Source: Naegleria gruberi
Taxonomy: Eukaryota
DNA: 64,000 nt
Assembly: GCA_000004985.1 (NCBI GenBank)
Contig: GG738876.1
Direction: 5' to 3' (one strand)
This document shows, piece by piece, positions 23,821 through 58,090 of this stretch. The translations under genes and the position numbers were made by a program. How positions within the stretch are numbered: position 1 is the stretch's first letter; every line of letters starts with the position of its first letter. Below the pieces are notes generated by a model. The model was not told the origin of the DNA, searched no databases, and worked only from the letters and a program-made list of their open reading frames with translations.

Positions 23821-23905
23821 GAAATGGTTTTTTATAATAGCTAAGTCAATAAAAGAATACTGAAAAAATTACAGAGGATAAACCAATAAGTTATTATTGT
23901 TACAA

Positions 23906-26404
23906 TTACAGATTTTGTTGAGTGTTAGCATAATTGGAGAGTTCTTCCTTTTGCTTTTCGCACAAATCAATTAATGCTTCAGTATCACGCTTATATTTTT
24001 CTTCCAGTTCTTCATTCTTCTTCTTGAGTCTTTGAATTTCTTCCCACATGTTTTTGAATTCTCTTTGGAATGTTTGAACAGTAGCTTCGTTTTTGCTTTC
24101 TGAAAGAGCCTTAATTTCTTGAAGCTTATTCATATCAGCAATAATTTCATTTGCTCTGATTTGAAGAGTATGCAAAGGTGTATAACCATAATATTCGTAT
24201 CCATTTGGATCCTTTGCATATCTAAGCCAATATGTGGACCATAACTGTATAGAACTATGTCTTAAATCTGGATATATTACATAGGTTGTATTATCAGGAT
24301 CATAGAAAGGATTAAGATAGTTGGTACCACAACCTTCATATTCAACAAGGACGTTTCTATTCAACAAGTATGTCCACATAGAATGAGTCTTTTCATAAAT
24401 CTTGTATTTGACTCTTTCTCTTTCATTATCGAAAATAAAGTTACCAAATCTACAAGAATACAAATTATCAAGGACGAAAATCAAGAAAAGTTCGTTAAAC
24501 TCAAATGCAGTTGGATGTTGACGCATCATTTGATAAACGCAATCAATAAATTGAACAAAAATAGGACCACGTTCATCAGTGTAGAAAGTTTGACGACTAC
24601 CGTGACCAATTCTCTTTTGGAACTGGTGACCAAATGCACACCATTCCTTTTCAATGAGAACAGCAAAACCTTCCATGGTTCTACAGTATGGATCTGCCAT
24701 AATTTGGAAGAGGCAAACAACTTGACTGGTTCTATCCCAACCATCAGAACAGTGAGTAAGTACAGATGTACGTTCTCTGAAAAATACATCAACACAAAAA
24801 TGGGCAGCTGTCAAAATTGAACGAATATGTTCTAACCATTGTGTGCTTTCAACCTTGCTATGCCAATTCAATTCAACACCTCCGAAATCGTGGCAAACAT
24901 CAGCCAATCTAGCAAAGGAATTTCTAACCACGTGAATATTTTCAATATTCATGAATCTAAGTTCGCAATTCTTATAATTCTTTTCATAACCAGCACCTTT
25001 AATGACACGATTAGCTTCAGCATTAGCTCTTGGACGCAAATCGACAATCATTAATCTTTGTTGAGTCTTTTCACTGGCTTGCATAATAGATTCAATAGTT
25101 CTATAATCACCAATATGCTTCTTTGTTATTTTACCAGTAAAATTAAGACCAATCATTGGTTGAGCACATCTGGTTAATGAAAGTTCAGTCTCAGGATCAT
25201 ACCAACTCAAAACTGGAATTCTGCCTCTCGATCTGAATTCTGCAGCAGCCTTAACTTCTTCATCAGATAAATTGTTTGGAACAAGGAAAAGACTTGGATA
25301 GGTGTCACAAATCTTGTAATTTTGATTCAAAGTACAAATTCTCCAGTTTTGTTTAGACATGTTAGAAGGTGGAGTTTTGATTTGTCGGTGAGAAGTATTT
25401 TGAGGTGTTACATTATTATTACTAAGAACTCCTTGTCTTGTATATTCCTTAACCAAATCGTACACTCTCCAGCCATCAACAGGTTCAGAAGATGGTGTTG
25501 GTAAAATACTTGGTATACCATTTGATGAAGATCCATTTGATGGACTTTCCACACCTGTTGGAGAAGTAGCTTCACCAATAGTATTAGTAGTAGGTGGAGG
25601 AATAGTAAGTCTATATTTGTAAGCAAAGAAATGTTCTGGATTTCTATCATCTCTAATTGTTCTGAAAATTCTTCCTCTGGTTCCTCTTGTTGGAACGAAT
25701 GCAAATTTCACATGTTGGAAATTTTTAGTGAAAATTTCAATGAGATAGGAATAGTCCTTAGTAGAATTTGTTTTACCTCCAATCTTTTCCAATTTAGAGA
25801 TGGTACATAGAGGAATATCACTTCCTTGGAATTGATGAGGAACATCATCATAGGTTGATTGTGTTGCAGGCTTGAAAATAAGTCTATAATTTGTAATGAA
25901 TAAAACACCTTGATGCCAAGCAACTCTCTGAGGTGAAGTATGTCCATTCCACTCAAACACCTGAGTATCCTTGTCGATAATTTCTTCACCAGGAAGAAGA
26001 GCAGGACTGAGAAGTACTTTGGACATTTTAACATCTTGACTCACAACGCTATTACTTTGTGTTGTTCTATTAGTTTCATAGTAATTGTTAATAATTGATG
26101 ATCCAATTATTGTATTTGATGTTCCATCATCGGTTGATGAATCGTTATTATTGGCCATGTTGCTATCACTTCTAATTGGTCGTAAATTTTCATGATGTTG
26201 TGGAAGGGTTGAAACAGATTCAGAGTGGTGAATACTAGTATTATTGTTATTGTTGTGCGTATTAGAGGTAGTACTTGATGAAAGTGGATGAATTTGTACG
26301 CCATCCTCTACGTCATCATCATTGACTGATGAATCATCTGTATTATCACCTGTTAGATTCTCGTTAACAGCCTGTTCGCTATTGGAAGCAAAAAATCTTC
26401 TCAT
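23906..26404 (-). CDS. Myotubularin-related phosphoinositide 3-phosphatase
   Basis: Single exon of 832 aa. It has a Ser/Asn-rich N-terminus, a GRAM/PH-like segment and the CX5R active site (VLTHCSDGWDRTSQV) of the myotubularin family. The SID/coiled-coil C-terminus is typical. Confidence 0.9.
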   Translation of the reverse strand: MRRFFASNSEQAVNENLTGDNTDDSSVNDDDVEDGVQIHPLSSSTTSNTHNNNNNTSIHHSESVSTLPQHHENLRPIRSDSNMANNNDSSTDDGTSNTIIGSSIINNYYETNRTTQSNSVVSQDVKMSKVLLSPALLPGEEIIDKDTQVFEWNGHTSPQRVAWHQGVLFITNYRLIFKPATQSTYDDVPHQFQGSDIPLCTISKLEKIGGKTNSTKDYSYLIEIFTKNFQHVKFAFVPTRGTRGRIFRTIRDDRNPEHFFAYKYRLTIPPPTTNTIGEATSPTGVESPSNGSSSNGIPSILPTPSSEPVDGWRVYDLVKEYTRQGVLSNNNVTPQNTSHRQIKTPPSNMSKQNWRICTLNQNYKICDTYPSLFLVPNNLSDEEVKAAAEFRSRGRIPVLSWYDPETELSLTRCAQPMIGLNFTGKITKKHIGDYRTIESIMQASEKTQQRLMIVDLRPRANAEANRVIKGAGYEKNYKNCELRFMNIENIHVVRNSFARLADVCHDFGGVELNWHSKVESTQWLEHIRSILTAAHFCVDVFFRERTSVLTHCSDGWDRTSQVVCLFQIMADPYCRTMEGFAVLIEKEWCAFGHQFQKRIGHGSRQTFYTDERGPIFVQFIDCVYQMMRQHPTAFEFNELFLIFVLDNLYSCRFGNFIFDNERERVKYKIYEKTHSMWTYLLNRNVLVEYEGCGTNYLNPFYDPDNTTYVIYPDLRHSSIQLWSTYWLRYAKDPNGYEYYGYTPLHTLQIRANEIIADMNKLQEIKALSESKNEATVQTFQREFKNMWEEIQRLKKKNEELEEKYKRDTEALIDLCEKQKEELSNYANTQQNL

Positions 26405-26844
26405 ATTTAAAGGTAATATTATATTATTATTATTATTTGTTTGAATATATTGTGATCAAATAGTTGATCCTCTACAATCGGCAACAATATGTTCCGTTAA
26501 TGAAAAAATAGTAAGAGCTTTGTTAGTAGCACTACTCAAAGAGTGATTCGAGAGAGAGATTGTAATCAAAAATGTGATGAAACACAGCAAAATTTATGTA
26601 TTAGAGAAGCAACAGCTGTGGTGAATATTTTTTCTCTTGAAAGTCCGTACAAGATTTTGTCAAACTTTTTTAACTCTTCACTTGGTTCATAAAGGAACAG
26701 TGGAGAATTATCTTGTGGGCAGTTCGTAAGGCCCTAAGAATCTAGAAAATGTTAAATATCAGCAGCTATTCCTCATTACAAACCTAATCTTCACTTCTTA
26801 GATTTTCATATTTATTTAAGGCTAAATTTCAACATTAACAAGAT

Positions 26845-26916
26845 TCCCGTGTAGTCCAATGGCTAGGATACCTGGCTTTCACCCAGGAGGTCCGGGTTCA
26901 ATTCCCGGCATGGGAG
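26845..26916 (+). tRNA. tRNA-Glu (anticodon TTC)
   Basis: A 72-nt cloverleaf: 7-bp acceptor stem (one G-U), anticodon loop CTTTCAC, T-loop GGTTCAATTCC, and a T-run (ATTTTT) within 12 nt downstream. The plus-strand track ORF 26859..27107 overlapping it is spurious. Confidence 0.9.
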
Positions 26917-26943
26917 AATCATTTTTGGATATGAACTTTGCAT

Positions 26944-29833: not shown

Positions 29834-32800
29834 TTACTGATTATATTCCAATAACTCATCTTGCAAAGTATATAATTGTTGAGCTAATTCTTCAATACTT
29901 GGTCTCTCCTTTGGATTGTGATCCCAACATCTTTTAATGAGCTTGGTCAACTCATACACAATAGCAAAATCAGCTGATTCATCCTCCATAAACATTTCAC
30001 ACCACTCCTCACACGAATCCAAAGATTCGAATGGTATAATTGGCCTTAAATTCTTTTCACAGACCATTCTAGATAACTTGTAAGGTGACATGTACTCTGG
30101 TTTAGTTTCCAATCCTAATTTTTCCAAAACTGAGGGAATTCCACTCATATACGGATCTCTCACTTCAAATAAGAGTTGCCACATGATTATTGACAGACTG
30201 TAAATATCGACAGCAGTTGCATTTTCTGGATCAATTGACTGAATATCATTCATTTCTGGACTCATGTAAAAAACTGATCCAATATTATTAGTAATTGAAT
30301 TTTTGGTTCCTTGTGATAATAATCTACTCAATCCAAAATCACAAACTTTACAATTTTCATTCGAATCTAATAGAATATTTTGTGGTTTCAAATCTCTATT
30401 TCAAAAAATTAAAAAATCTCAATTCAAAACTTGAACACACATACCTATGAATAATCTTTCTCGGTTTCAAATTGTGTAAATATTCCACACCATTCGAAAT
30501 GGAAATTAACATTTTAATCTTTTCCACAAGTGGAAGGGCCAATGTTTTGGATTCCAATTTTAAAATTACCTTATCCAAACTTTGTTCCAAACATTCCATG
30601 ACAATGTATCGTTTCGTTGGTGAGGTAGAAACTCCATAAAAATTGATAATATTTGGATGTCGGAGTTTGCTTAATAAAATTGCTTCCACTCTGAAATCTT
30701 CCTCTGAAATATTGACATTATTCAAATCAAAGACTTTGACAGCAACAATCATTCCAGACCACATGGTTTGATAGACACTCCCTACTCCGCCCTCACCCAA
30801 TCTTTTCATTGGTTTTTCCATTCCTAATTTTTGAAGTGGAATGATAAAATCATTTTCTTTGAGTTCCTCAGCAATTGGTTCCAAATGATACGAGTTGATA
30901 ATGAGTCTTTCATCCAATGCCAAGTCAACTTGAATAATCTTTCGTTGGGCTCTATTCTTCTTAATAAGTATGGAGCTGAAAAAGGTAATGGCCACAACGA
31001 GTGCAATGCAAAGGAATAGCACAGCAATGAAACTCACAATAAAGGCAATGATTTGTCCACCATCTTGACAATTATTTCCAGAATATCCAAAATTACATTC
31101 ACAATCTCCTGTAGTTTTGCAAACTCCTCTTCCATAACAAACATGTGGATCCTTTTCGCTGATTCCAGAACATGAACTGAGCTGGCACTCCTCTCCAATG
31201 AAACTTCCCTTACATGAGCACTTGTTTCTCGAGGTGCAAATTCCACGTTCGCTTCCTCCACACGAATCTCCAATTAGTTTGGAGAAACAAATTGCATTTT
31301 CACATTGGAAACCATAATAACCATCATTGCATCGACATGAATCAGGTTCACTACAGGTTCCATTATTATTGGAGCATACTTGAGAATTGTTTGCTGTAAT
31401 TCCATAACAAATTGGAATTTCACATTGACTGCCCGTGTATTTTTCTTGACATTGACACTTGTTTGGTGACACACAAGCACCATGGTTGTGACAAACTGAC
31501 AAGGTTTCATTATCAGGAATCCCAAAGCATACAGCCAAACATTCAGTTCTATTAGAATCTAATTGATAACCCTCATTACACATTGGAGTTAATCTCATAA
31601 TGGTATCGTACAATGCAAGGTAAATTGTGTTATCGCTAGTGACCTGAATATCTGAAAGGATGCCATCATGATTAACTGTTGTTCTAATTTTCCCTTTGGA
31701 AACAATTCTAAGCATATAATTAAGCGTGTCACCAATCACCAAGTCTCCATTACTAAGGAAGGAGACAGCTCTTGGGTAGGATAATTTAACTTGTAGAGGA
31801 TCAGTGCCAGAACTGAAACCTTCCTCTCCAGATCCAGCAATTGTAGAAATTTCATAATGATCATCTTTTTTAGTCAACTTTCTAATACGATGATTACTCG
31901 TGTCTGAAAAAACAATATCCTTAGTTATTGGATTTATGGCTAATCCAGTTGGTGATCTTAGATTTGCTAAAATACCAATGCTGCCATCACCTGAAAATCC
32001 AAACTTTCCAGTTCCAGCTATTGTTCGAATTATACCACTATTATCAACTAATCTTATTCGATTCGTATTCGATTCGGATATTACCAGTTCATTATTGGAT
32101 GTTTTAACCATTTTAGCTGGATAAACATTAGCATTATAAACACTCATTCCATCACCAATTCCTCCAACTGGGGTTAACAATAGAGTGTCCAACTTTCGTA
32201 TATTATTATTCTCTGTAAAGAAGAAACTTCCATCACTTACTATTGAGCAAACACCAAATGGAAATCCAATAGTATTGCCATCATCATTAGAAACCTTTGA
32301 ATAAATGAATCCAGTCCGTGAAACAAAACGAATCCTATTATTATACGAATCTGCAATTAAAAAACCATTGGAATGAACTGTTATCGATGTTGGATTGAAT
32401 AATTTGGCTGTTTTAGCCGTAATTCCATCTCCATTATATCCTGCCACAGTTGTCCCAGCCAAAGTACTAATTGTTCCTTCAGGAATCAAAAAACCTTGAG
32501 AATCTTGTTTCACATTTTGATATTTCACCTGGAGAATTCGATGATTTGATGAATCTATATGAAAAAAAATTGAACAAATTAGAATTGAATGAGACTTGAA
32601 TGAAATAACATACCAGCAATGTAAATATCATAAAAAAAGAATCCATTTCGTATAACTTCAATTCCAGAAGGTGAATTGAGCTCTGTTTGTCTTGGATTAT
32701 TTTCCACAATGGTAGAACCTGACGAACCCAATCCAACAAGTGTAGAAACTGTGGATGCATTGGTGTAGGGCACAATTCTAACTCTATGATTAAGGGTATC

Positions 32801-34796
32801 AGATATCAAGATTCCAATTCTTTTACTTGTAGCATACTGTGGAGAATTCAAATGAGTATTAAGGGGATGAAGAGAATCTCCATTGAATCCAGCAATTCCA
32901 GTTCCTACTATAGTGTTGATTATTCCATCTTTCGTAATTTTTCTAATTCTATGATTTCCAGTATCTGCTATCAATAGAAAATCATCAGATTTATCATAGT
33001 AAACAGAATAGGGTCTATTTAATTGAGCATGGATTGCTAAATTACCATCTCCTCCATAACCTGGCTCTCCTGTTCCAGCTACCAATTGAACCTGCAAAGT
33101 AGATGGATTATATTCTAATATTCTATGATTATCAGTGTCTGTTTGACATTTTTGAATTGCAAGGAACACATGTGAAAGACTTACCTGCAATGTATATTTG
33201 AGTAAAATCTGTAGAGCAGTGAATACCCATTGGATTATTAAGAATGATTCTGGAAGCATTCGTATTGGCGAATAGTCTGTCAGAAGTTATGGAACCTGCA
33301 TACATGCAATTGTTTCCGTTGGTATTTAACGAAAATTGTTGTAAATTAAACTTTAGTCCCACATTGCTTGCCACGAGGAGTTTTTCATTATTAAGAATTA
33401 GACCACTTGGGTTTTCTATTGTGGAAATTACATTTGTGGAGGCACCAGGAACAGTACATGATTCGTTCGAAATCTTATTAGAAAGTGAATATTTCACAAC
33501 TTGGTTTGTATCAATATTCAATACATTAATTTTCAATTTCTTGGTCAAATCATCTGCAATGTACAATAATCTACTTGTTTCATTGAGAGTCATTGCAGAA
33601 ATTGAATTAAATCTCATAAATTTTCCATCAATAAAATCAGAAAAAGATCCATATTCACAATCGTATAAACGAGTGAGCTCTCCACTCACCAAATCCACTC
33701 TACCAATCATACAAATGTCATTCACATAATTTCCAGAGAATAAATTAACATCAGTACTGACATACTGAGCCAAATTCACAAATGATGAAATAATTCCATC
33801 CTTAATTTTCAACAATTGACTGCCAAGTGAAACCAAAATCGTTCCATCACTTGTTACTGAAATTCCAGCTGCATCATTCAAGGAAGCATTAATTGCTAGT
33901 CCATTCACTTGATACTGAGTTCCTCCCTTAAATTCTCTTCCACTAATAACTGTCAACCAACCACTTTTCATTTCAATTTTAAAAGTGGAAAATGAATCAA
34001 TCACAAAAAGGTAATTCTCCATTCCAACAATTTTCTTTGGACTACTCAAAACTGTTTCATTGGCAAAACCATCTAATTTAGTTTGAGTTACTAAACCATC
34101 ACTACCAGCAAATGTTGAAATTATTCCATCCAAGCCAATTCTTCTAATTCTATAATCTGTATAATCACAAACAAAGACAATTCCATTTTGGTCAACCCAC
34201 AAGGAATTAATCGAAAGAAACCTAGCTTTCGTAGCTAATCCTCCATCCCCTCTCTCTAATGCTCCAAAATATCCTGCAAAAACACTGACTAATCCATCAT
34301 TGTCAATTTTAATAATTTGCTTGAATCCAGAAACATAAATCGTCTTGTTTCCACTTGTCAAATCTTCCAAAACATAAAAATAGGAAAGTGGGTAGTAGAG
34401 ATTGGTTGCTTTGGTATCGTTTTTCTTCTCCAGACTGTCTGCAGTATCACACCTTTCGAATACAGAATCCTCACATCCCATGAGTGTAATAATTTCTCCA
34501 GTTTTCTGATTAAATTGAATGATTTTTACTGCAGTAGCAATGTAGAGGATAGCAGAGTTGATGAGAGACTGTTGACCTGAGCTGAAACTGTAATTATATT
34601 TGGGGCCACCTGCAATTATTTCTTGTTTAAATTCTAATGGAGCTTCTTCCGAGTTTCGAATAATGAAGAGTAGACAAGAAAACAGTAGAAGCAGTACTGC
34701 CATCGATGGCAGCTTTGTGTGTTTCCTACAGAAGCCGGATAAACATTTGAGCATATTTTTTCTTTTAAGCAAAGATATTCTTCTGTTGTCGGACAT
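29834..34796 (-). CDS. Receptor protein kinase: signal peptide, NHL-repeat beta-propeller ectodomain, EGF/tenascin-like Cys-rich repeats, one TM helix and a TKL-type Ser/Thr kinase
   Basis: join(34796..33184, 33137..32613, 32553..30445, 30395..29834) on the minus strand, about 1600 aa. The introns are 33138..33183 (46 nt), 32554..32612 (59 nt) and 30396..30444 (49 nt). All are GTAAGT/GTATGT..AG with phase conserved. The ectodomain has many NHL-type units (..GxxGxxGf.GDGG.A..A.L..P.gv..D..GN..IaD..NHRIRki). It is followed by about 4 EGF-like Cys-rich modules, the TM segment IIAFIVSFIAVLFLCIALVVAITFF, and a kinase with GEGGVGSV, VAVK, HRDLKPQN (split by the last intron) and DFG. Confidence 0.8.
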
Positions 34797-41629: not shown

Positions 41630-42682
41630 AATTTCCATTCTTTAAGAATTGTCTCAAAAGGAATATTAACTTGTCCTAGGATGTTTTTGAAGATCAATAA
41701 AAGAAAGAGGAAGAACAAGATTGAGGATGATCAGGAAGTTGATCAAGAGGATGAAGGTCAAGATGAGAAGATGAGTGAAGAGAACCAACAGCAGCAATAC
41801 GAGGGGAATCCTAAAAGAGGAACAATCCCGCAACTATGGAAACACGTTTAAGAGAGGAGGAAAAGGATGATCCTATTTATTCCGTTCCTAATCTGTTTTG
41901 TTATTCACCTACTCGGGAAGCTTAGATCGCTCCTTAACTGATTAGTAATTCGAATAGGTATTTGCTTATGCGACCTAAAATTGTTGCATAATTTTCTCTC
42001 AGCACTTGGATTAAGAGTTGTAAGGATTTTCCATTATTAACTGCAAGTTGAACTAATAATATAAATATAGTTAAATTGACTATTAGTTCTTTATTGAGGT
42101 TAGTGTTTTCTAATATCCATCAAGAGGAAGAGATTCCTTTGAGGAATTGTTACCGAAATTAAGGAAAACAATTCTTATTGTGCACTTTACAAGCAAACAG
42201 ATTAACAAAACAGAACTTTGCCCAAAACGTAGTTCATTACCAAATCCAATCCTCACCATTTTAGTACGTGAACATTAATCAACGGTACTACACTTGCCAA
42301 GTACACAGCAAGTAAGCAAGGCAAGCAATCGCTTCCTTCTTGTTTAACAGTTTGTATAAAAACTTATCAAGGTTTTCCTTAATGCCTTGCGTGAAAGAAG
42401 CAAACGTCTATTTAAAGTTCTTTTATGGTTTAATTCGGCCTTAATTGCTTGAATTTTAACAAGTCCAGCCATCAAAACACAAATAAGGTAAAGGTAATCA
42501 CATCATTACGATAGCAATAGCGATACAAAAAGAGCCAAACATTGGAGTGGGTTTGCCTTCGAATCATTTGGCATTTTCTAAGTGCTCTCACAAAAAGAAA
42601 CTCCTCACCATCACTACCTCAGTTTCCCTTCCTCAATACTACTACTACTGCTGGCACTACAATCAATATAATCAAAGGCCTC

Positions 42683-43729
42683 ATGTCTATAAATTCCTCA
42701 ATAGTAAATTCTGCTGTTGTTGACAGTCCTCCTCGTCGTTGTGTTGATTCTCCCTCTTCATCTACCACATCAATATCAACATATACCGATAATAGTGATG
42801 AGAATAACTGCTTATTTCTCCCTCTTCGACCATCTCCAACTAGTCCACCTCAAAAATCTCAAGAGCAGCATCATGTTGAACCACATGCAAATAACAATTC
42901 CTCAACTGTTATAGAAATATCGGATGCTGCTACCCCAAACATGATTGTTTCTTCTCCACATCTTGAACCATGTAAATCTAGCTCATCACTCAATAGTACA
43001 ACAACAACATCAAGTAGTGGAACCATTTCATCTCAACAAGTTGGGCATGCCGAAGCAAGCAGTACACTAGCAGCAACATCTTTCCTTACATTCACTCCTC
43101 AGAATGCAGAAATCATCAAGCCAAAACGAACCAACAAGGCATGCACAGCTTGTAAATCTGCTCACAAAAAGTGCTCAAATACACGACCATGCACAAGGTG
43201 CATTTCCTTAAACAGAGAGGACAAGTGTGTAGACATGGACTCTGGGAGAAAACGAGGCAGGAGGGCTAATACACCTCGATCTGGAGGGTTACTAGTACAT
43301 AATTATGATCCCCATAATCCTTTTGTGTCTGGAAAGCCAAATACAGTTGTGTTTTCATTGCAACATGCAATTAATGAGGATCCTGGGAGCCATCATAAAC
43401 CATCCAAAAAGGTAAAACAAATTCCAACCTTACATGCTCCTGACATGTCCAATAATAATAATCATCATGCAACAAATGAACCCATAGGGCATGTAGATGT
43501 ACCACATGCTACTAACATGTTAAATCACACAAACATGCTTTATCCAACCTCTCATCATTTTTCAACACCATCTCATCATACTGATAATTTATCAACACCA
43601 TATCAGCATGCATCTCATTCTACCTCATCAACAATTCAAACAAGTCAAAAAACTCTTCCATCCATTAATGAATTAACAGAATGCAAAAATATTCTGTCGA
43701 ATTCTCAATCAGTTTTTTACCATCAATAA
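42683..43729 (+). CDS. Zn(II)2Cys6 binuclear-cluster (GAL4-type) DNA-binding protein, S/T/H-rich
   Basis: The track ORF starts at a TTG; the first ATG is at 42683. CTACKSAHKKCSNTRPCTRCISLNREDKC fits the CX2CX6CX5CX2CX8C pattern. It is followed by the basic KRGRRANTPRSG segment and has low-complexity flanks. Confidence 0.65.
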   Translation: MSINSSIVNSAVVDSPPRRCVDSPSSSTTSISTYTDNSDENNCLFLPLRPSPTSPPQKSQEQHHVEPHANNNSSTVIEISDAATPNMIVSSPHLEPCKSSSSLNSTTTTSSSGTISSQQVGHAEASSTLAATSFLTFTPQNAEIIKPKRTNKACTACKSAHKKCSNTRPCTRCISLNREDKCVDMDSGRKRGRRANTPRSGGLLVHNYDPHNPFVSGKPNTVVFSLQHAINEDPGSHHKPSKKVKQIPTLHAPDMSNNNNHHATNEPIGHVDVPHATNMLNHTNMLYPTSHHFSTPSHHTDNLSTPYQHASHSTSSTIQTSQKTLPSINELTECKNILSNSQSVFYHQ

Positions 43730-43758: not shown

Positions 43759-44904
43759 TTAATCAACCATATCAAAACTCTTTGAATTTTGCTGCTTGGA
43801 AACAAATCTCTCCTCATCGAACCATGTAATGGAATTATAATTTTCCATAGTTTTCATTGGAAATTCTTCAAATTGAGCAACATCATCGAAAACAACCCTA
43901 GTCTTTCCTGATTTTTCAACTCTAATTTCAATATCAAAATTTGCAAATGTACCACTGAATATTACTACATCCTTGCTCATGTCAAAAAGTTCTGTGAGTT
44001 TCTTGGAAATTTCGCATGAATATGAAAATGCATACCATATCTTGGCTTGTTCCAAAAGTGACTGGTGGAAATTCTTTCTTTCAAATACATTCCAATCATT
44101 CCAACCAATGAATTGTCTAAAATTTTTAGCATCCTTTCCAGAACATTGAGAGTATTCATCCAAAAGATAATTGATATATTTTTGAATAGCTTCTCTAGCT
44201 CTATTCAGGCATGTGTATCTCACAAAGAGTGCATATCTTTCTGGCTTGTCCATTGGAGAAAAGAGGAATTTACCTTTCGAATTTCTATCATATTTCAATT
44301 CTGGTGGAATAATTTCCCTTCCTTCCTTTTCCACAGAAAATTTCACTCTTCTCGAATCTTCCTCATCTTCCATTTCCTCTTGCTGTTGAGAAGAGTCCAT
44401 AAAATCACTCGTCCCAACATCAATCCTAAGCTTTCTATAAAAATACAATTCATTTTCCAATTCGTATTGCTCCTTGAATTTTGCAGAGAACTTTTCCAAC
44501 ACAAAATCTTGCCACGACTTGGAAACATAAACCATACACTGCAACAAATCTTTCAATTCCAAAAATTGGCTAATCAAATTCATTATCAATGAATTCTCCA
44601 AATATTCATTCCAATTAGCATCCACATATATCGAATTTGCAATTATTTTGTACGAATCCTTCTTCTCTCCAACATTTCTCCTAGTTGAAAATTGATTAAA
44701 AGCAATCTTTTGATTTCTTGATGATGTATCAGTCTCATTCTTGGCCGAAAGGATAGATCCCTTCCCAATGACCTTCCGATTACTAACCCTCTTCTTCTCA
44801 TTCCTATCTTGTTGCTGGTGATGAGAAACGATCAACATTCCCTCACCATCATCCAACTCAATGAGTGCAGGCATTTTTTTGCTATTCGGAAATTGTTTTC
44901 TCAT
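43759..44904 (-). CDS. Hypothetical protein (381 aa)
   Basis: ATG-initiated single-exon ORF with an acidic central stretch and no recognisable domain. Confidence 0.5.
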   Translation of the reverse strand: MRKQFPNSKKMPALIELDDGEGMLIVSHHQQQDRNEKKRVSNRKVIGKGSILSAKNETDTSSRNQKIAFNQFSTRRNVGEKKDSYKIIANSIYVDANWNEYLENSLIMNLISQFLELKDLLQCMVYVSKSWQDFVLEKFSAKFKEQYELENELYFYRKLRIDVGTSDFMDSSQQQEEMEDEEDSRRVKFSVEKEGREIIPPELKYDRNSKGKFLFSPMDKPERYALFVRYTCLNRAREAIQKYINYLLDEYSQCSGKDAKNFRQFIGWNDWNVFERKNFHQSLLEQAKIWYAFSYSCEISKKLTELFDMSKDVVIFSGTFANFDIEIRVEKSGKTRVVFDDVAQFEEFPMKTMENYNSITWFDEERFVSKQQNSKSFDMVD

Positions 44905-45042
44905 TGAACATGAAGAAAACTAATAGGATATTCAACAATGTTATCATTACATCAAATAAATTAATTGATTTTGGGTGTGAAACTAATTTTCATTATTATT
45001 TGAAAATTGAAATTTAATTTTGTATTTAAAAAAATAGAAAAA

Positions 45043-46440
45043 ATGGACGGATTGATCGGAAGAGATTTAATCACAATTGAAGTTGAAATGTTGAGAGCCT
45101 TGTATCCAGAGGAAGAAGGTCTTTTAAAAGTTGATAATTACTTGGATTCGGAGGATTATAATGAAGGGAAACCATTGAAACTTTTTATTACAATTTCTCC
45201 AAGTACTGGATTGGACGATGCGACACAATTTGTATCATTGCAAATTTGTTTTAATATTTCAAATCTTGATGAGTATCCATCATGTTTGTTGAAGGAGGTT
45301 AGTTCGAATAGAAAAGGATCGAGTGAGGATCAAAATTATTTTATATCAATTCCTTGGAGAAGAGGTTTATCCGAAGTTCAATGTAATTACATGCTTTCCT
45401 ATTTGTATAAGAAGGCTCAACAATTAATTTCCGAATCAGAGGATTTTTCATGCTCTCCACCTGTTTATAATTTATTAGAGGAAGCGAGAGAATATTTGAA
45501 CAATGAAAATGCAAGACAATTGGAGGTTAGCAGATGTTCTGTTTGTTTGGATGGATTTTCTGGAAGTGAGGCCTTTATCAAATTGCCATGTTATCATATT
45601 TTCCATACCAATTGTTTGAAAACTTGGTTTTATCACAAGTGTAGAGACAGATATGATCGTTATTTGGTATTGATGGATAGAGATGACAGAGGTGTGACAA
45701 GCGGAGGTGAAGAAACACCAACTCAACCAGAAAATGAACCACTTTCAGGCTCTGATTCTCCAATTGTATTTGATGCATCATGGAAAGAAAATATTCTCAA
45801 TCATGATTCTATTTTCACTTGTCCTATTTGTTTGGTCACTATTCCAGTAACAGTTGTGGAGCAACAATTGGAAGTTAAGAAGGATGATATTATCAATCAA
45901 TACAAGAAGGAGAAGAAAAAGGAAGATCTGGAACGAAAGAAGGAACTAAAACGGTTGCTTGCATTGCAAGAGCAACAAAAACCACAACCACCTCCTCAAC
46001 CAAAACCAGTTCCTGTCATCAACAAGGAGATACCAAAGAAAAAGAAGGAACAAAAAGGAGGATGGAATGGTAAATCTGAACTTTATGGCGTGGAAATTGA
46101 GGGTTTAACATATAGTAACAATAGTAACAATATTGGAGTGAAACAAAAGGAAAAGGTATTCACTGATTTGAAGGAAGTAGCCAGAGTGAGAATGACCAAT
46201 ATGGGAACAACAACTGGAAGAGGTCCAAGAAAAATCACCTTACTTGCTGAATTCGTTTCCCTCGAATTAGCAGAAAAATTCCAAAGAGAATTCAACAATA
46301 AGAGTATCTATGATGAAACTGTCACATGTTCCCTTGCTGCCATCCAACCCACAACGGCTAGCATTGAGAAGAGCAAACCAGCTTCAAGTAGCAGCTCGAC
46401 AAGTAATTCGAATGAAAAAACCAAAAACCAAGAAAAATAA
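45043..46440 (+). CDS. RWD-domain RING-H2 E3 ubiquitin ligase (RNF25-like)
   Basis: The track ORF starts at a TTG; the first ATG is at 45043 (MDGLIGRDLITIEVEMLRALYPEE = start of an RWD domain). RING-H2 motif: CSVCLDGFSGSEAFIKLPCYHIFHTNCLKTW...CPICL. A K/E-rich coiled-coil tail follows. Confidence 0.7.
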   Translation: MDGLIGRDLITIEVEMLRALYPEEEGLLKVDNYLDSEDYNEGKPLKLFITISPSTGLDDATQFVSLQICFNISNLDEYPSCLLKEVSSNRKGSSEDQNYFISIPWRRGLSEVQCNYMLSYLYKKAQQLISESEDFSCSPPVYNLLEEAREYLNNENARQLEVSRCSVCLDGFSGSEAFIKLPCYHIFHTNCLKTWFYHKCRDRYDRYLVLMDRDDRGVTSGGEETPTQPENEPLSGSDSPIVFDASWKENILNHDSIFTCPICLVTIPVTVVEQQLEVKKDDIINQYKKEKKKEDLERKKELKRLLALQEQQKPQPPPQPKPVPVINKEIPKKKKEQKGGWNGKSELYGVEIEGLTYSNNSNNIGVKQKEKVFTDLKEVARVRMTNMGTTTGRGPRKITLLAEFVSLELAEKFQREFNNKSIYDETVTCSLAAIQPTTASIEKSKPASSSSSTSNSNEKTKNQEK

Positions 46441-46442
46441 AA

Positions 46443-47281
46443 ATGCTCAACACTTCAATTAGGAATTTATACTTGAATGCAAGAAAATCATCATCAATAT
46501 GTTTATCGATGAATAATAACAATAGATTGATGAAGAAACTCTCATCGGAATGTAAATGTTCCTTTTCGACAAGTATGAACAAATTACAGAGACCTATCAT
46601 TTCAAATCTAAATGCAAATTTACATACTCAACAACAACAACAACAAAATTCAACCTGTATTGTCATTCTCCCACAAACAAATAGAGGAAATTATATTTTA
46701 TTACGTGATGCTAATGGAAATTGTACACTTCCAAAAATTACACTTCCAAATAATTCGGAAATTGATTTACATAGAGAAATTGAAAATTTCTTATTAACTA
46801 GATGTGGACATGGATATGAATTATTGAAAACTGATCCTAAATTTCAAGTGGCTCAAGTGATATCCCCAGTTGTGGATTTTGATTTTACACATGGAAATTT
46901 AAATATTACTCACTATGTCTATCATGCTCAATCTCTGGATCAAACTGTTTCATTAAATGATTTGGATTTGGCAAATGGTGGCAAAAATTCTAAAACTCTT
47001 CACTTTATGTCAATTGTAGATATGGAAAAGGAATTGAATGATCCACAAATTATTAGAGATGTTGTCACAAGATATACTCTTTCGTTTTTAGTTTCTCAAA
47101 AGGTATGTTAAATTTTATATTACTGAAATAATTGTTATTGAAATATTTTGAATGGGACCAATTGAAAACTCTATAGATTAAGGAATCATTTGATATTAAA
47201 TTAGGAACTACCAGAATTATGTTTGCTACTGCTGGTATTCTCGTCAGCATTGTTGTTGGATTTATTGCTGGTCAATTTTAA
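46443..47281 (+). CDS. Hypothetical tail-anchored protein with a presequence-like N-terminus, 2 exons
   Basis: join(46443..47102, 47177..47281). The intron is 47103..47176 (74 nt, GTATGT..CTATAG, phase 0). The C-terminal TM segment is IMFATAGILVSIVVGFIAGQF. The ATG lies only 2 nt after the TAA of the upstream RING gene. Confidence 0.55.
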
Positions 47282-48352: not shown

Positions 48353-49287
48353 ATGTCCAAGGATTTTAGTATTGTCAAATTTAAGAAGGGCGAGGCAACC
48401 TTTGAAGTGTTGGTTAAGCCAAATACAGTGATTGCTCATCGTGAGGGAAAGATGGGAGTTGATGATGTTATTTATACTGATGAAATTTTCTCCAATTATG
48501 CCAAAGGTGATAAAGTTAAAGATGAATCATTAAAGGCTGTTTTCGGAACAACAAATGTTAAAGAAGTTATTACCAAGATTATTGCTGATGGTGAATATCA
48601 CATGTCTACTCAAGAACGTAAAGAAAAAGTTGATCAAAAGAGAAAGCAAATGATGTAAGTAGTAGTTTAAAATTATAATATGAATTTTAATGATGAATTT
48701 TCATAATAGTTACTTTATCCATCAAAATTACATTGATCCAAAGACTAATATTTGCCATCCTCTCACCCGTATTGAAAGTGCTTTGGATTCTGTCAAATAT
48801 GTAGGTTTTTATTGACCAGACTGTGATGATTTTAATATTTGATTTTAATATAGAATATTGATCCATTCATGCCAGCTGATAAACAAGTTGCTTCCATTCA
48901 CAGCAAGTTGGTTGAAAAGATTCCATTGAAAAAGTCACAAATTGAAGCTGAAATTGACGTCAAGCATCACGTTGCTGGTCAAGGTATGTTTTTATAATGA
49001 GAATGATAATAACAATTCAATTACATAATGAATTACAATATTAATTGAATCTATCAGCTCTTGGAACTTGTCACAAACATGCCAAAGTCGTTGGCCAAAA
49101 CTATACTGATACCGGTTGTACTATTAGTATTGAAATTTGTCCAGGTGAATATGACAAGCTTATTAATGAATTGAACTCATCCACAAAGGGAGATTTCCAA
49201 TTCAGAATTGCTGGTGCCTCAGCTAGTGTTGAAGCTTCCGAATCAAGTGATTCTGGTAAGAAGAAGAAGGGTGGTAAGAAGAAGTAA
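48353..49287 (+). CDS. SBDS: SBDS / Sdo1 ribosome maturation factor, 4 exons
   Basis: join(48353..48654, 48710..48800, 48854..48983, 49058..49287). The introns are 55, 53 and 74 nt, all GT..AG with phase conserved. There is an N-terminal FYSH domain (MSKDFSIVKFKKGEATFEVLVKPNTVIAHREGK...). The central and C-terminal domains align with SBDS (..NIDPFMPADKQVASIHSKLVEKIPLKK..). Confidence 0.85.
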
Positions 49288-49842: not shown

Positions 49843-50820
49843 ATGATTTCAAAGGTGGCAATTCTTGCCTTGCTTTTTGCATGTTGCATGTTGATGATTG
49901 CTTTTACTCAAGCAACATCACCTGCTGGTTTGAGATACAGATATGTTGAAAATTTGAAGGAGGAAGAATTGGCTGATGAAGTTTTTGATCTTCTTGCTGA
50001 TAAGCTTGCTCATGTAGTTTCATCTAGTCAATCTCGTACTGGTTCTTACAATCCTGATACCAAGTCTCATGGAAAGGCTTTTGTTGTTACTCCAGGCATG
50101 AAAGGTGGAAACTATAGAACTCATTCTGATAAAGCATTTGTCATGACATCTGGCATGAGAGGTGGAAATTACAGAACAAACTCTGATATTAAAGCCTTTG
50201 TTATGACTCCAGGCATGAGAGGTGGAAATTACAGAACCAGTTCTGACAAGGCATTTGTCATGACATCTGGCATGAGAGGAGGTAACTATAGAACAAACTC
50301 TGATATTAAAGCCTTTGTTATGACACCAGGTATGAGAGGTGGAAATTACAGAACAAACTCTGATATTAAAGCATTCGTCATGACACCAGGTATGAGAGGT
50401 GGAAATTACAGAACCAGTTCTGATAAGGCATTCGTCATTACATCAGGAATGAGAGGAGGTAACTATAGAACAAATTCTGATATTAAAGCCTTTGTTATGA
50501 CACCAGGTATGAGAGGCGGAAATTACAGAACCAGTTCTGACAAGGCATTCGTCATGACATCTGGCATGAGAGGTGGAAATTACAGAACAAACTCTGATAT
50601 CAAAGCCTTTGTTATGACACCAGGTATGAGAGGAGGTAACTATAGAACCAGTGCTGATAAGGCATTCGTCATGACTTCTGGTATGAGAGGTGGAAACTAT
50701 AGAACTAATTCTGATAAGGTTGCTTATGAAGTAACTCCTGGAATGAGAGGTACAATTGGTCACACTACCTATAATCCAGGTACAGTTAACCATGGAAAGG
50801 CCTATGTTGTTAGAAAATAA
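49843..50820 (+). CDS. Secreted tandem-repeat protein: signal peptide plus 12 alternating 19/20-aa repeats KAFVMT[PS]GMRGGNYRT[NS]SD(I)
   Basis: The track ORF begins at a GTG; the first ATG is at 49843 and is followed by a signal peptide (MISKVAILALLFACCMLMIAFTQA). The DNA repeat unit is 57/60 bp over 50080-50760 with over 90% identity between units. The flanking units are degenerate (HGKAFVVTPGMKGG.. / HGKAYVVRK). Confidence 0.75.
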   Translation: MISKVAILALLFACCMLMIAFTQATSPAGLRYRYVENLKEEELADEVFDLLADKLAHVVSSSQSRTGSYNPDTKSHGKAFVVTPGMKGGNYRTHSDKAFVMTSGMRGGNYRTNSDIKAFVMTPGMRGGNYRTSSDKAFVMTSGMRGGNYRTNSDIKAFVMTPGMRGGNYRTNSDIKAFVMTPGMRGGNYRTSSDKAFVITSGMRGGNYRTNSDIKAFVMTPGMRGGNYRTSSDKAFVMTSGMRGGNYRTNSDIKAFVMTPGMRGGNYRTSADKAFVMTSGMRGGNYRTNSDKVAYEVTPGMRGTIGHTTYNPGTVNHGKAYVVRK

Positions 50821-53879: not shown

Positions 53880-53953
53880 TACGCCGTAAGGGAGTCGAAC
53901 CCTTGACCTTCAGCGTGTAAAGCTGACGATCTAACCAACTGATCTAACGGCGC
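53880..53953 (-). tRNA. tRNA-Val (anticodon TAC)
   Basis: The reverse complement folds as a 74-nt cloverleaf: acceptor GCGCCGT/ACGGCGT (1 G-U), D-loop AGTTGGTTAG, anticodon stem TCAGC/GCTGA with loop TTTACAC, T-arm AAGGG-TTCGACT-CCCTT. There is a T-run immediately 3' on the minus strand. Confidence 0.85.
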
Positions 53954-54295: not shown

Positions 54296-54741
54296 ATGGG
54301 AAGACTCTTCTTAAGATATCTCGATGGACCATCGGTTTATGTTTGTTCCAATTGTAATTCTCACCTCTGCATGAATGATGAAATCATTTCCAAGCATTTC
54401 CATGGACGTTATGGAAAAGCCTACTTGTTTAACAAGGCGTAGGTATTATGAATTATTCTCATATTTCAATTCTTTTCAATTTACTGTTTCAATTAACTGA
54501 TCATTTTAATATTTCAATATTAATATAATGATAATATTCGGAATATAGAGTGAATGTTTCTAATGGACCATTGGAAGAGAGACAATTAATGACTGGTTTA
54601 CATGTTGTCTGTGATGTGTACTGTGTAAATTGCAAGTCAAATGTTGGATGGAAATATAAAGAAGCATATGCCACAACTGAACAGTACAAGGTTGGAAAAT
54701 TTTGCTTGGAAATGACTAAATTGAAAAAGGAAACTATGTAA
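54296..54741 (+). CDS. Yippee-like zinc-binding protein, 2 exons
   Basis: join(54296..54438, 54549..54741). The intron is 54439..54548 (110 nt, GTAGGT..ATATAG, phase 2). MGRLFLRYLDGPSVYVCSNCNSHLC...CVNCKSNVGWKY gives the two CxxC pairs of the Yippee/Mis18 fold. Confidence 0.85.
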
Positions 54742-54919
54742 ATTATTTAATCCTGTGTGGATCTGGATTTCAATGCAGATTTCCTACTTTGTAAAATTAC
54801 CTTGTAAATAATTGTAAATAATGCAATCTGATATTTTTATTGGAAATGGAAACTTTTGAATTGAAGAATTGTTCAAATTCTATCATGTTTGACTGAATTG
54901 GCTAAACATGTGACATGGA

Positions 54920-55816
54920 ATGGTTGATAATAAACTAAAATTTCTTTGGTTATTGCACTTCTTTCACAATAAAAATATGGTCAGAGTAAAGAACAATTCC
55001 CCAGCAGCTGCTGTGCCCATTGTTCAAGAACCAGCTGAAGAGGAGAAAGTCTATTCGATAGGATTAGTTGGAGATGCAGGTGTGGGTATGTTTGAGAGTT
55101 GAACTTTTTATTAATAAATATTAGGGAAAGCTAGCTTGTGTGTTGAGTTTACAAAATCAAAGAAAGTGAGAGGTATGTTCTTTCAGTTTCCAATATTTCA
55201 ATTTTCCTTCCTTGAACAGTTTCAAGACCATCAGCTTACGATCCAACAGATGAATCTCGATTCTATCAAACCATTTCAATTGACAACTCAAATGTAACAG
55301 TTCAATTAATAAGCACATCAGGTCAAGAACTCATGAATGCAGTCGAGGATATTTACTTTAAGAAATGTTTGGGTTTCCTGCTCATCTTTTCTCTAGATAA
55401 CAGAAATTCTTTCATCAGTGCCACAACCAGACACTATGAAAAGATATTGAGAATGAAGGATTGTGTGCAGTCGGAGGATATTCCACATAATATTCCAATG
55501 ATACTTGTGGGAAATAAGGTGCGTATTTTATTCAAGAATTTTATCAATGAATTACATAATATTTGAAAATTAGAATGATCTCGATCTGTCTAAGGTACAA
55601 GTCAGCAATCAAGAAATTGAACAATTTTGTCAGAAAACATTTATCAAATATGTTGCCACTTCAACAGTAACTAATGAGAATATCTATGATTCGTTTGAAA
55701 TGATTGTAAGGCAAGTGGTTGAATGTGATTACATTGAAAGTATGAAGAAAATATTAGAAAGTAATCAAGAAAAGGAAAAAAAGACGAAAAAGAAACCTAG
55801 ATGTATTATATTATAA
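54920..55816 (+). CDS. Divergent Ras-superfamily small GTPase with a CaaX box (CIIL), 4 exons
   Basis: join(54920..55085, 55125..55172, 55220..55518, 55574..55816). The introns are 39, 47 and 55 nt. The P-loop reads GDAGVGGKAS, which has an extra Gly and GKA instead of GK[ST]. Switch II is STSGQE rather than DTAGQE. NKND (NKxD) and a C-terminal CIIL geranylgeranylation box are present. The true start may be the internal ATG at ~54977, because the first 19 residues are odd. Confidence 0.65.
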
Positions 55817-55871
55817 ATTAGGTGCTTAGATTTAATAAATTCCACAATTACTCATCATGGTATTTACACAA

Positions 55872-56795
55872 TTAAAAATTAATAGTAAAATGTTCTTCAT
55901 CAAGGGTATTGAAAAGAATACCATCATTAACTAAAAGTCCAAAAGCTTGTTCCAAATCATCCTCATTGTAAGCTTCATAGAGAGGTGCCAAGATGTCAGC
56001 CTTAGTGACACCAGTTCTTCTATTACCATTCATGACTACAGTTTTGGCGACTTCAACAATATCATCCTTCACTCTTTGAACATTTGAAAAATTGCTACTG
56101 CTTGCATTATAAGTAGCATTACTTGTAGAAGCTGATGAACTAAAGTTGTAACCATTATCAAGAGTAGAAGTATTCATAGTGTCACGATTGGATTGGGTAG
56201 ACTTTTCTGGAAGCCCAACTGTATTAAATAAATGTACTTGAATACATTCAAGCATGTGGAAATAAATTTCATTGGCATCTTCAACTCGTCTGACCATTTG
56301 TGCTTTAATTGAAAGTCTATCTTTATATTCACTAACTAATCCGAAAGCTTTGACAAATTTGTTGACTCTACATTGTTGATTATTGAAATAATAAACACAA
56401 TTAATAATTATTTTCAAATCATGACAAGAACAATTAATGATGATGATAAATAATCAACATTTGTGAATATATAATAATACATACTGAATTTGTTCAACTT
56501 CACTCTTCAAAAATGGATTATTATTCACAGATTCATCAAATACTTTTACATCCAACTTTCCGGTACAATCATCAATTTGAATTGTGGTAAATCCATTCCT
56601 GCTGTTGATTGATGTTACCATTCCCAACACTTCAACAATATACAATTCCTTTCCATCGACAATAAACTTTTCGCTTACCGTCTTTCTACCCAGTAATTGT
56701 CTGATTGTGAGAGGAGTAATCGATGAAGGCTTTTCACCACTCATCCTTGTGTGTTCCTTTGAATTATGGGAGTCTTCGAAAAATCCAGTTTCCAT
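55872..56795 (-). CDS. RPA2: Replication protein A 32-kDa subunit (RPA2), 2 exons
   Basis: join(56795..56485, 56367..55872). The intron is 56368..56484 (117 nt, GTATGT..ATGTAG, phase 2). It has an N-terminal Ser-rich region and an OB-fold (PLTIRQLLG...ELYIVEVLGMVTSI..). The C-terminal winged helix (...DILAPLYEAYNEDDLEQAFGLLVNDGILFNTLDEEHF) matches RPA32. Confidence 0.8.
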
Positions 56796-56830
56796 TTTTT
56801 TTTAAATTTTTATCAATTAAAAAACCGTTT

Positions 56831-56841
56831 TTTGGCGGGAA
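56831..56841 (+). promoter_or_regulatory. E2F-type site TTTGGCGGGAA about 36 bp upstream of the RPA2 start codon
   Basis: Exact match to the canonical E2F consensus TTTSSCGS at 56831-56841. A weaker variant TTTTGGTGGAAA lies at 56859-56870. It sits in the 476-bp divergent promoter between RPA2 and the capping protein beta gene. Confidence 0.35.
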
Positions 56842-57271
56842 GCAATGCTCAAGCTAGTTTTTGGTGGAAAGTAATTTGCTTCAATCGCCAGCAAGAAGTG
56901 ATGTTACATTCCAATAGAACTGTTCTGAACTGGATAATGACCAGATTTATGTAAACATTACCCAACTCTACCTGATCATCAAGGCAGGCCATAAAAATGT
57001 TCATCATGGCAGCACTTGGAAGTAAAATAAAACGGCACTCGTCAATAAAATTTCTCAGCAACAACTCGTTCGACACTTAACAAATCACTCTCCAGAACAC
57101 TTGATGCCAGACAAACCACTGCCATCCAGCCAAAATTATTGATGTGTTGATTGAGTGAAAAAGGATTTAATTTAAAAAATTTTTAATCATCAAAAAAATA
57201 TCTTTCTCTCGTCATTGAGCAGCGGTTTTCTCTCTTGTGCGCGACTAAATATTTAAATCATCATCATCAAC

Positions 57272-58090
57272 ATGGCATCCGAAGATAGTCAGCTTAATTC
57301 TGCTCTTGATCTTTTCAGAAGACTCCCACCTGCTCAATTGGAAACCAACTTGAGTTTTGTTACTGAATTGGCACCACATTTAACTGATGATCTTTTGCAA
57401 ACTGTTGATTGTCCATTGAAAATTCGTAAATGTGCTGAAACTGGAAAGGATTATCTTGTCTGCGATTATAACAGAGATGGTGATTCCTACAGAAGTCCAC
57501 ACTCTAACAAGTATGACCCACCTTTGGAGGATGGTATTTTGCCACCTGAAGATTTAAGAGATTTGGAAAAGAAGGCCAACGATATTTTCCAATCATATTG
57601 TGAACAATACTATGAAGGAGGTATCTCTAGTGTTTATATGTGGGAAGTTATGGATGGAGGATTTGCTTGTGCTGTTCTCTTCAAAAAGGATGGTTCTGGT
57701 TTGAGAGGTGTCGAAAAGGGTGTTTGGGACTCTATTCACGTTGTTGAAGTTCAACCACAAGATTCTAAAACTGCCTTGTACAAACTCACCACTACTATTA
57801 TTTTGAGTATGGCCACTCAAGATGGACAATTGGATCTCTCAGGTAGTGTTCAAAAACAAGAAGATCAAACTTGTTCTTTTGATAATGCATACAATAGCCA
57901 TATTGTTAACATGGGTAACATGATTCAAAAGATGGAAAATTACTTGCGTAACCAATTGCAAGGAGTTTACTTTGATAAGGCTCGTGAAATTACTCGTACT
58001 CTTCGTAACACTCAAAGTTCTGGTGAACGTAAGGCCCAAATCTTATTGCAAAATGAATTGGCCAATGCTCTCTCCAACAGAAAGAGATAA
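57272..58090 (+). CDS. F-actin capping protein beta subunit (CapZ beta)
   Basis: Single exon of 272 aa. LNSALDLFRRLPPAQLETNL...DYLVCDYNRDGDSYRSPHSNKYDPPLEDG...WDSIHVVEV aligns end-to-end with CapZ beta. Confidence 0.9.
   Translation: MASEDSQLNSALDLFRRLPPAQLETNLSFVTELAPHLTDDLLQTVDCPLKIRKCAETGKDYLVCDYNRDGDSYRSPHSNKYDPPLEDGILPPEDLRDLEKKANDIFQSYCEQYYEGGISSVYMWEVMDGGFACAVLFKKDGSGLRGVEKGVWDSIHVVEVQPQDSKTALYKLTTTIILSMATQDGQLDLSGSVQKQEDQTCSFDNAYNSHIVNMGNMIQKMENYLRNQLQGVYFDKAREITRTLRNTQSSGERKAQILLQNELANALSNRKR

Follow-up and report, generated by a model that had tools for sequence, protein, structure and literature searches.

An old array of conserved peptide units

Within a stretch of 64,000 nucleotides of Naegleria gruberi DNA (NCBI GenBank assembly GCA_000004985.1, contig GG738876.1; henceforth the window), we studied a gene at 49843..50820 (+) whose product is made up largely of tandem units of 19 or 20 residues. 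We found that the array of units is old as a whole, with strong purifying selection acting on the peptide of every unit, and that the protein belongs to a small, amoeba-only and previously undescribed family limited to Naegleria and Willaertia. Our tentative reading, to which we give a probability of about 40%, is that the product would be a regular, very basic extracellular beta-solenoid with one unit per coil.

The array is far beyond chance. A run of Tandem Repeats Finder (TRF) recovered it as a single array at 50092-50719 with periods of 117, 177 and 294 and 84-86% matches, and an in-register split together with codon-by-codon variation resolved eleven tight units of 19 or 20 residues at 50074..50715 (+), with successive lengths of 57, 60, 57, 60, 60, 57, 60, 57, 60, 57 and 57 nt. 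The units fall into two types that mostly alternate, type A (KAFVMTSGMRGGNYRTNSD(I)) and type B (KAFVMTPGMRGGNYRTSSD). The original prediction had described 12 near-identical copies of an alternating 57/60-bp repeat with over 90% DNA identity. The alternation holds for most of the array but has one break, and the array closes with a short unit (57 nt). The copy number has to be revised to eleven tight units, the first of them slightly divergent (3 substitutions), plus two degenerate ones, giving 13 modules of 19-27 residues followed by a 7-residue stub. The identity was overstated for the DNA, where units differ at a mean of 9.5 positions per 57 nt (~83% identity; 0.815 at a lag of 117), and only the peptide is more than 90% identical. 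All 13 units fit the family pattern [KR]-x?-A-[YFH]-[EV]-[VIM]-[KT]-[PGAS], after which come a turn that contains Gly and a D at the end, and variation within the array is limited to unit position 7 and junction positions 17, 18 and 20.

The differences between units are largely silent. Third codon positions hold 426 of the 524 pairwise differences (81%) and make up 15 of the 21 variable columns; the silently variable codons (K, A, F, V, T, G, G, G, N, Y, T, D) nearly all vary while their amino acid is invariant. Nei-Gojobori estimates between units gave proportions of synonymous (pS) and non-synonymous (pN) differences of 0.60 and 0.046 over all units (dN/dS about 0.04), of 0.72 and 0.055 between type A and type B (dN/dS about 0.02), and of 0.45-0.47 and about 0.01 within one type (dN/dS 0.01-0.02). 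Synonymous sites between units are near saturation and, given that pN is low and the differences lie mostly in third positions, it follows that the array is old and held by selection, not homogenised.

This result overturns the earlier view of a surface protein that had recently expanded or evolves in concert, with a variable copy number, a view that we now consider very improbable. What speaks for it is that units 2 and 9 differ at only 2 nt and units 3 and 8 at 3 nt, and that segment variants have been reshuffled among units (at periods of 117, 177 and 294); from these observations we conclude that some conversion or duplication has occurred in the array. Such close pairs are few, however, and a mean pS of 0.60 with pN of 0.01-0.05, a pS of 0.45-0.47 even within one type, a DNA identity of ~83% and a longest exact repeat of 50 bp all count against a recent origin of the units.

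The gene is genuine, translated and composed of a single exon. One open reading frame (ORF) runs from the ATG at 49843, which is preceded by a run of A, to the TAA at 50818-50820 and codes for a protein of 325 aa. Stop codons occur in every unit in the two remaining sense frames and in two of the antisense frames, while the third antisense frame is open only locally, over part of the array, where it produces a 116-aa ORF at 50443..50793 (-). This ORF exists but, as had been suspected, is a by-product of the repeat and not a gene: stops interrupt the antisense frame in other units, and the pattern of substitutions agrees with no frame but the sense one. Because both the third-position bias and the frame-specific openness fit the sense frame alone, the reading frame is proven. 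A collapsed assembly is also unlikely, since the longest exact internal DNA repeat is short enough for ordinary reads to resolve the array.

One could still object that the ORF is an assembly artefact, or a non-coding satellite that is open by accident, as an exact look-up did not find the protein among the publicly collected genes. However, a neighbouring housekeeping protein is equally off record, and hence the absence says nothing specific about the repeat ORF. The indications of translation given above, the fact that the array units can be distinguished from each other, and a signal peptide and family-specific N-terminal region that are common with Naegleria and Willaertia proteins (see below) lead us to regard this objection as almost certainly wrong.

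A small family in Naegleria and Willaertia

An exhaustive HMMER search with the repeat protein against 1.84 billion representatives returned 33 hits, among which we recognised three true relatives: P0125 (E = 2e-9; 116 aa, metagenomic), P0136 (E = 2.9e-5; 121 aa, KAL9651282.1 of W. magna, ABK040_001235, annotated as ‘hypothetical protein’) and P0145 (E = 3.5e-4; P0145/P0154, 134 aa, XP_002670269.1 of N. gruberi, NAEGRDRAFT_74762, annotated as ‘predicted protein’). Pairwise alignments confirmed these relatives (e.g., BLASTP of the repeat protein against P0136: E = 2e-13). The original prediction had seen no obvious homologue family, and this stands in so far as no family described in Pfam matches the protein (including Curlin_rpt, Beta_helix and CW_binding_1); it does not stand for Naegleria and Willaertia, where the three relatives are found.

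Common to the relatives are an acidic helix, ELADxLxDILADK, and a unit of the form [KR]-x-A-[YH]-E-[VI]-[KT]-[PG]. The Naegleria-type relatives (P0125 and P0145) each contain two cassettes of helix plus AYEVKPNNAGKYNPD, and P0136 is laid out as a signal peptide, two copies of RAYEVTPGMRGMIGVKRLSD, a helix and three more units. With 116-134 aa and two (P0125, P0145) or five (P0136) units with helices between them, the relatives differ from the repeat protein, which has one helix and 13 units, and the MRGGNYRT consensus of the tight units is not found in them. The end of the signal peptide, YTQA/SSPG (here and below, the slash marks the predicted cut), is common to the Naegleria-type members, while the Willaertia member ends in VSA/R instead. 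In P0136, four full cores (17-mers) are identical in peptide with a pS of 0.51 and a pN of 0.013; that is, the Willaertia relative independently shows identical peptides over diverged codons, as in the repeat gene.

Other searches did not extend the family. A word-indexed homology search with the whole protein returned nothing, a profile search based on the alignment of the family recovered the three known members and no others, and a search of metagenomes for three copies of ATGAGAGG at a spacing of 51-66 nt matched at least 120 unrelated loci, with no family member found by tblastn among the matches listed. We found no paralogue and no second copy of the family motif elsewhere within the 64-kb window. 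The relatives' genes are not in synteny with the locus of the repeat gene and are surrounded by unrelated housekeeping genes. Literature searches on the N. gruberi locus tag, Naegleria cyst-wall proteomes, secreted repeats and encystation RNA-seq returned nothing on the family.

Several hits were rejected. The two top HMMER hits, P0121 (E = 5.7e-50, summed over 11 stretches; matching PF07699) and P0122 (E = 2.7e-20), carry Cys-rich Ephrin_rec_like repeats of 20 residues and were taken as periodicity artefacts. Both are giant proteins (4148 and 3510 aa), and repeat-on-repeat matches can inflate HMMER E-values. The repeat protein does resemble Ephrin_rec_like/TNFR-type repeats (PF07699; P0121 and P0122) in its 20-residue period and G-x-Y-x-T-x-S spacing, but Ephrin_rec_like/GCC2_GCC3 repeats are defined by CxxC pairs and the mature repeat protein has no Cys at all. 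In total, hits P0121-P0124 and P0126-P0131 were set aside as artefacts of periodicity or composition. P0137 (KRLVVKSGVKGGGLTLNHNA), which has a 20-residue period like that of the repeat protein, lies between ABC-transporter genes on a bacterial contig and was treated as chance; at its locus (2916-3437 of the bacterial metagenome contig L127), a 60-nt repeat resembles the amoeba unit at several positions. Two metagenome singletons (P0148 and P0151) were treated likewise, and the Pfam matches to Rho_RNA_bind and Pox_A22 were sub-threshold chance matches with no passing stretch.

The gene model of the Willaertia relative includes an annotated 38-bp ‘intron’ at a T6 run (W. magna JBEGDK010000072.1; locus L005, 10001-10404). 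At this run the reading frame shifts between two repeat units, and the intron of ABK040_001235 looks like a homopolymer error or frameshift that was patched by the gene model rather than a real one.

Signal peptide, acidic segment and flanking units

We infer secretion from residues 1-24 (MISKVAILALLFACCMLMIAFTQA; 49843..49914 (+)), which have the make-up of a signal peptide: Lys4, a 17-residue hydrophobic core (residues 5-21, mean Kyte-Doolittle 2.9) and a TQA/TS end. This end aligns with those of P0125 and P0145 as [FY]TQA/[ST]SP[GA], and cleavage would probably occur after TQA; with the 24 residues removed, the mature protein has 301 residues. The proposal of a secreted repeat protein is thus in keeping with both the hydrophobic N-terminal segment and the conservation of the cleavage region in two relatives. 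As the C-terminus has no hydrophobic tail, neither a glycosylphosphatidylinositol (GPI) anchor nor a membrane anchor would be expected.

Alignment to P0125 and P0136 delimits a pro-region-like segment at residues 25-53 (49915..50001 (+)), with the acidic helix motif EEELADEVFDLLAD at 49960-50001. The segment can be aligned with each of the two ELADxLxDILADK cassettes in P0125, at 42-47% identity, as well as with ELADRLADILTD in P0136. Residues 41-54 (EELADEVFDLLADK) match the acidic helix motif of the family, [DE]ELADxLxDxLxD[KR], and positions E42, L43, A44, D45, D49, L51 and D53 are invariant in one family alignment. Residues 25-77, which include EEELADEVFDLLADK, are acidic overall (net charge -3, isoelectric point (pI) 5.1), and AlphaFold2 (AF2) places helices at 27-36 and 40-53 with low confidence.

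Degenerate copies flank the tight units at both ends, as had been noted originally. Unit 0 (KLAHVVSSSQSRTGSYNPDTKSHG; residues 54-77, K54-G77; 50002..50073 (+)) is read from the sequence directly after the acidic helix and lines up with the DK.AHEVKPNNAGKYNPD cores in both P0125 and P0145. Unit 12 (KVAYEVTPGMRGTIGHTTYNPGTVNHG; residues 292-318; 50716..50796 (+)) has the core AYEVTPGMRG.IG, identical to that of P0136. It is followed by the C-terminal stub KAYVVRK of 7 residues and the TAA stop (50797..50820 (+)).

A putative beta-solenoid

The fold and role of the protein are also matters of inference, and we propose the following model. The product would enter the secretory pathway and lose its 24-residue signal peptide, and the mature protein would consist of a short acidic helical segment, 13 modules and the 7-residue stub. 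Within each module, a strand (KAFVMT) would be followed by a turn (P/S-G), M-R, a second turn (GGN), a second strand (YRT) and a third turn (N/S-S-D), and the modules would stack as successive coils of a single solenoid (pI about 10.8), with Phe, Met and Tyr in its core and ladders of Gly and Asn at its corners. The degenerate end units may cap the stack, and the acidic helix may be a chaperone or a cap for the N-terminus. Either each coil would have to match its neighbours, or a periodic surface would face a periodic or anionic ligand (wall polysaccharide, matrix or prey surface); both would explain why residues are constant in every unit while codons drift. The role would then lie outside the cell and be one of structure or binding (cyst wall, coat or adhesion), and the wall, matrix or adhesion function suggested originally may still hold.

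Several observations are consistent with this model. In the single-sequence AF2 prediction, regular strands are found across residues 80-310, two or more per unit, with a predicted local distance difference test score (pLDDT) of 63-72, and the weak Foldseek hits are all beta-helices. Across the family, unit positions 3 (F/Y/H) and 5 (M/V/I) are hydrophobic and positions 4 (V/E) and 6 (T/K) are polar or variable, an alternation that would fit a strand with one buried face. Variation within the array falls in positions 7, 17, 18 and 20, which are the presumed turns, and there is neither a dibasic site nor a spacer between units.

Other points weigh against the solenoid. The AF2 model, built with no alignment, is of low confidence overall (mean pLDDT 59, predicted TM-score (pTM) 0.53, residues 17-77 below 50), Foldseek gave no significant hit for it, and AlphaFold tends to build beta-solenoids from any perfect short repeat. 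Relatives with 2-5 units interrupted by helices could not form a monomeric solenoid unless polymerised, and AF2 of P0145 with a four-sequence alignment gave helices and unstructured cores (pLDDT 52). Known solenoids usually tolerate far more coil-to-coil variation than is seen here. In the literature we found no expression, localisation or proteomic data for the repeat protein.

Known beta-solenoids with coils of about 19-23 residues offer a comparison, namely the Marinomonas antifreeze RIV (3p4g), curli CsgA (8c50), the two-partner secretion (TPS) adhesin EtpA and the two-coil amyloid units of HET-s type. The repeat protein has no sequence similarity to these, no Pfam repeat match and no Ca-binding or Q/N-rich motif, its units are far more uniform, and its fold rests only on the low-confidence model.

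A different possibility is that the chain has no fixed fold and is an extended or disordered matrix or adhesive protein rich in Gly, Arg, Tyr, Asn and Met, which would act through its charge, by cross-links between Tyr residues (dityrosine, known from the precursors of the coccidian oocyst wall) or in the manner of a mussel-foot glue. The composition of the eleven units lends itself to this (15% Gly, 10% Arg, 10% Thr, 9% Met, 5% Tyr; net charge +22, pI 10.8, grand average of hydropathy (GRAVY) -0.67; no Cys and no Trp), as do the low AF2 confidence and a secreted product without an anchor. However, disordered repeats rarely keep every residue at a dN/dS of about 0.03-0.04, strands and turns are clearly patterned in the unit and hydrophobic positions alternate, and Tyr is modest at one per tight unit (alongside one Phe). 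We judge this alternative distinctly unlikely. The eleven tight units contain no N-glycosylation sequon.

A multi-copy peptide precursor as an alternative

The beta-solenoid has a further competitor, which the original prediction had not considered and for which an array this old and a family of this shape leave room. The protein could be a polyprotein precursor, guided by the signal peptide and acidic pro-helix, in which cuts where units join (around ...R-T-[NS]-S-D-(I)-K...) release 11-12 copies of two nearly identical cationic peptides of 15-20 residues. These would serve as signals, as pheromone-like factors or as antimicrobials, and comparable precursors are those of yeast alpha-factor, fungal Kex2-processed repeat proteins (KEPs), neuropeptides and polyubiquitin. 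Identical peptides over diverged codons are the classic signature of genes for multi-copy products, and this signature is present in two genera, in the repeat gene and in the four 17-mers of the Willaertia relative. The relatives are tiny, prepro-like proteins made of cassettes of acidic helix and core, the number of cores being 2, 5 or 13 across the family; an acidic pro-region lies ahead of the basic units; the cores of P0145 are unstructured in AF2; and in both genera variation is seen in the last 3-4 residues ahead of each following [KR]-A-[YF], in a spacer-like manner.

The comparison with known precursors cuts both ways. KEPs are recognised by a signal peptide, at least 3 repeats and KR, RR or KK between the repeats (PMC6339444). 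P0136, where KR follows every core, fits this description, and the spacers of P0125 and P0145 carry KKR, SKR or HRK. The repeat protein itself has the signal peptide and the at least 3 near-identical repeats of KEPs and alpha-factor, but lacks the defining KR, RR or KK between every repeat, as there is no dibasic site in the eleven tight units or anywhere in residues 25-323 and the only dibasic pair of the whole protein is RK at residues 324-325. [quoted passage not shown] A dikaritin assignment also fails on the lack of dibasic sites and of any UstYa/DUF3328, tyrosinase, protease or tailoring-enzyme neighbour, the genes near the repeat gene encoding SBDS-like, CTLH-RING, Bax inhibitor (Bax1-I), RWD-RING and Zn2Cys6 proteins.

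The absence of a processing protease or modifying enzyme beside the gene tells against a precursor. Basic residues also occur singly, three to a unit, and none stands out as the likely cut, and the whole unit is constrained, with no clearly relaxed spacer. To our knowledge, no peptide signalling system is known in Heterolobosea, and a literature search gave no paper on one. Considering both sides, we regard a precursor as possible but rather unlikely.

A broader and somewhat less probable proposal concerns the family as a whole, which could constitute a leader-plus-multicore peptide system of heterolobosean amoebae or, as a second possibility, a supply of cross-beta building blocks for secretion, each chain having 2 to 13 coils. 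In the former case, the ELAD helix could be the leader or pro-segment, the AYEV/AFVM unit could be a released and possibly modified secreted peptide, and the repeat gene could be an 11-13-copy ‘amplifier’ version. In the latter, the family could represent a eukaryotic functional amyloid similar to curli or HET-s.

Genomic neighbourhood

The window has a G+C content of 31-37% and contains many long ORFs with eukaryotic domains, namely CTLH/RING, Bax inhibitor, F-actin capping beta, myotubularin, Hsp70 and F-box/LRR domains, some of its genes being split by introns. Just upstream of the repeat gene lies an SBDS-like gene, whose ORFs at 48353-48658 and 49045-49287 (+) look by eye like two exons with an intron between them; the second of these ends in a Lys-rich tail. 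The 555 bp from its end to the ATG of the repeat gene would hold the promoter.

The CapZ-beta gene at 57272-58090 encodes a protein 81% identical to that of Willaertia magna and 91% identical to a protein on a metagenome contig (L001; GC 38%). This contig keeps the gene order Yippee - Ras - RPA-like - CapZ-beta of window positions 54382-58087, and its other genes map to 22510-26404 and 43837-47105, which means that the neighbourhood is conserved but rearranged. The CapZ-beta match places the source among the heterolobosean amoebae, in the Naegleria/Willaertia clade.

Elsewhere in the window, a 1204-aa ORF at 12733-16347 (+) has a CEMIP beta-helix domain (PF24606, E = 1e-63) and CEMIP domain X and is CEMIP/TMEM2-like. 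An ORF at 30396-32528 (-) combines NHL repeats, teneurin-type EGF domains and a protein kinase domain in a receptor-kinase-like arrangement, and is adjoined by an ORF with a teneurin-type NHL domain at 33132-34796 (-). A fungal-type Zn(2)-Cys(6) binuclear cluster domain (PF00172, E = 3e-5) is encoded at 42542-43729 (+) in this non-fungal genome. Two tRNA genes, tRNA-Glu(TTC) at 26844-26917 (+) and tRNA-Val(TAC) at 53880-53953 (-), lie between protein-coding genes.

Implications

Secreted tandem-repeat proteins are common, and they are usually explained by recent, fast expansion with variable copy number. The gene described here is the opposite case: the array is old, nearly every residue of every unit is frozen and the codons have drifted. 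While the secreted tandem-repeat protein is known as a kind, an old array frozen by selection is an unusual variant of it, and the small, clade-specific secreted family in Naegleria and Willaertia, which carries no annotation, is new. Units frozen in this way point to a precise requirement unit by unit, be it for stacking or a periodic surface or for the release of many copies of one peptide, and the solenoid and the polyprotein precursor are two mechanisms that fit a frozen peptide over drifting codons.

On present evidence, the repeat protein remains an uncharacterised lineage-specific protein. If the multicore proposal were true, the family would be the first precursor family of peptide pheromones, signals or antimicrobials described in Discoba. 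The Naegleria/Willaertia group includes the pathogen N. fowleri, and should the repeat protein be a component of the cyst wall or of adhesion, or a source of signalling or antimicrobial peptides, it would bear on encystment, feeding and cell-cell communication in these amoebae.

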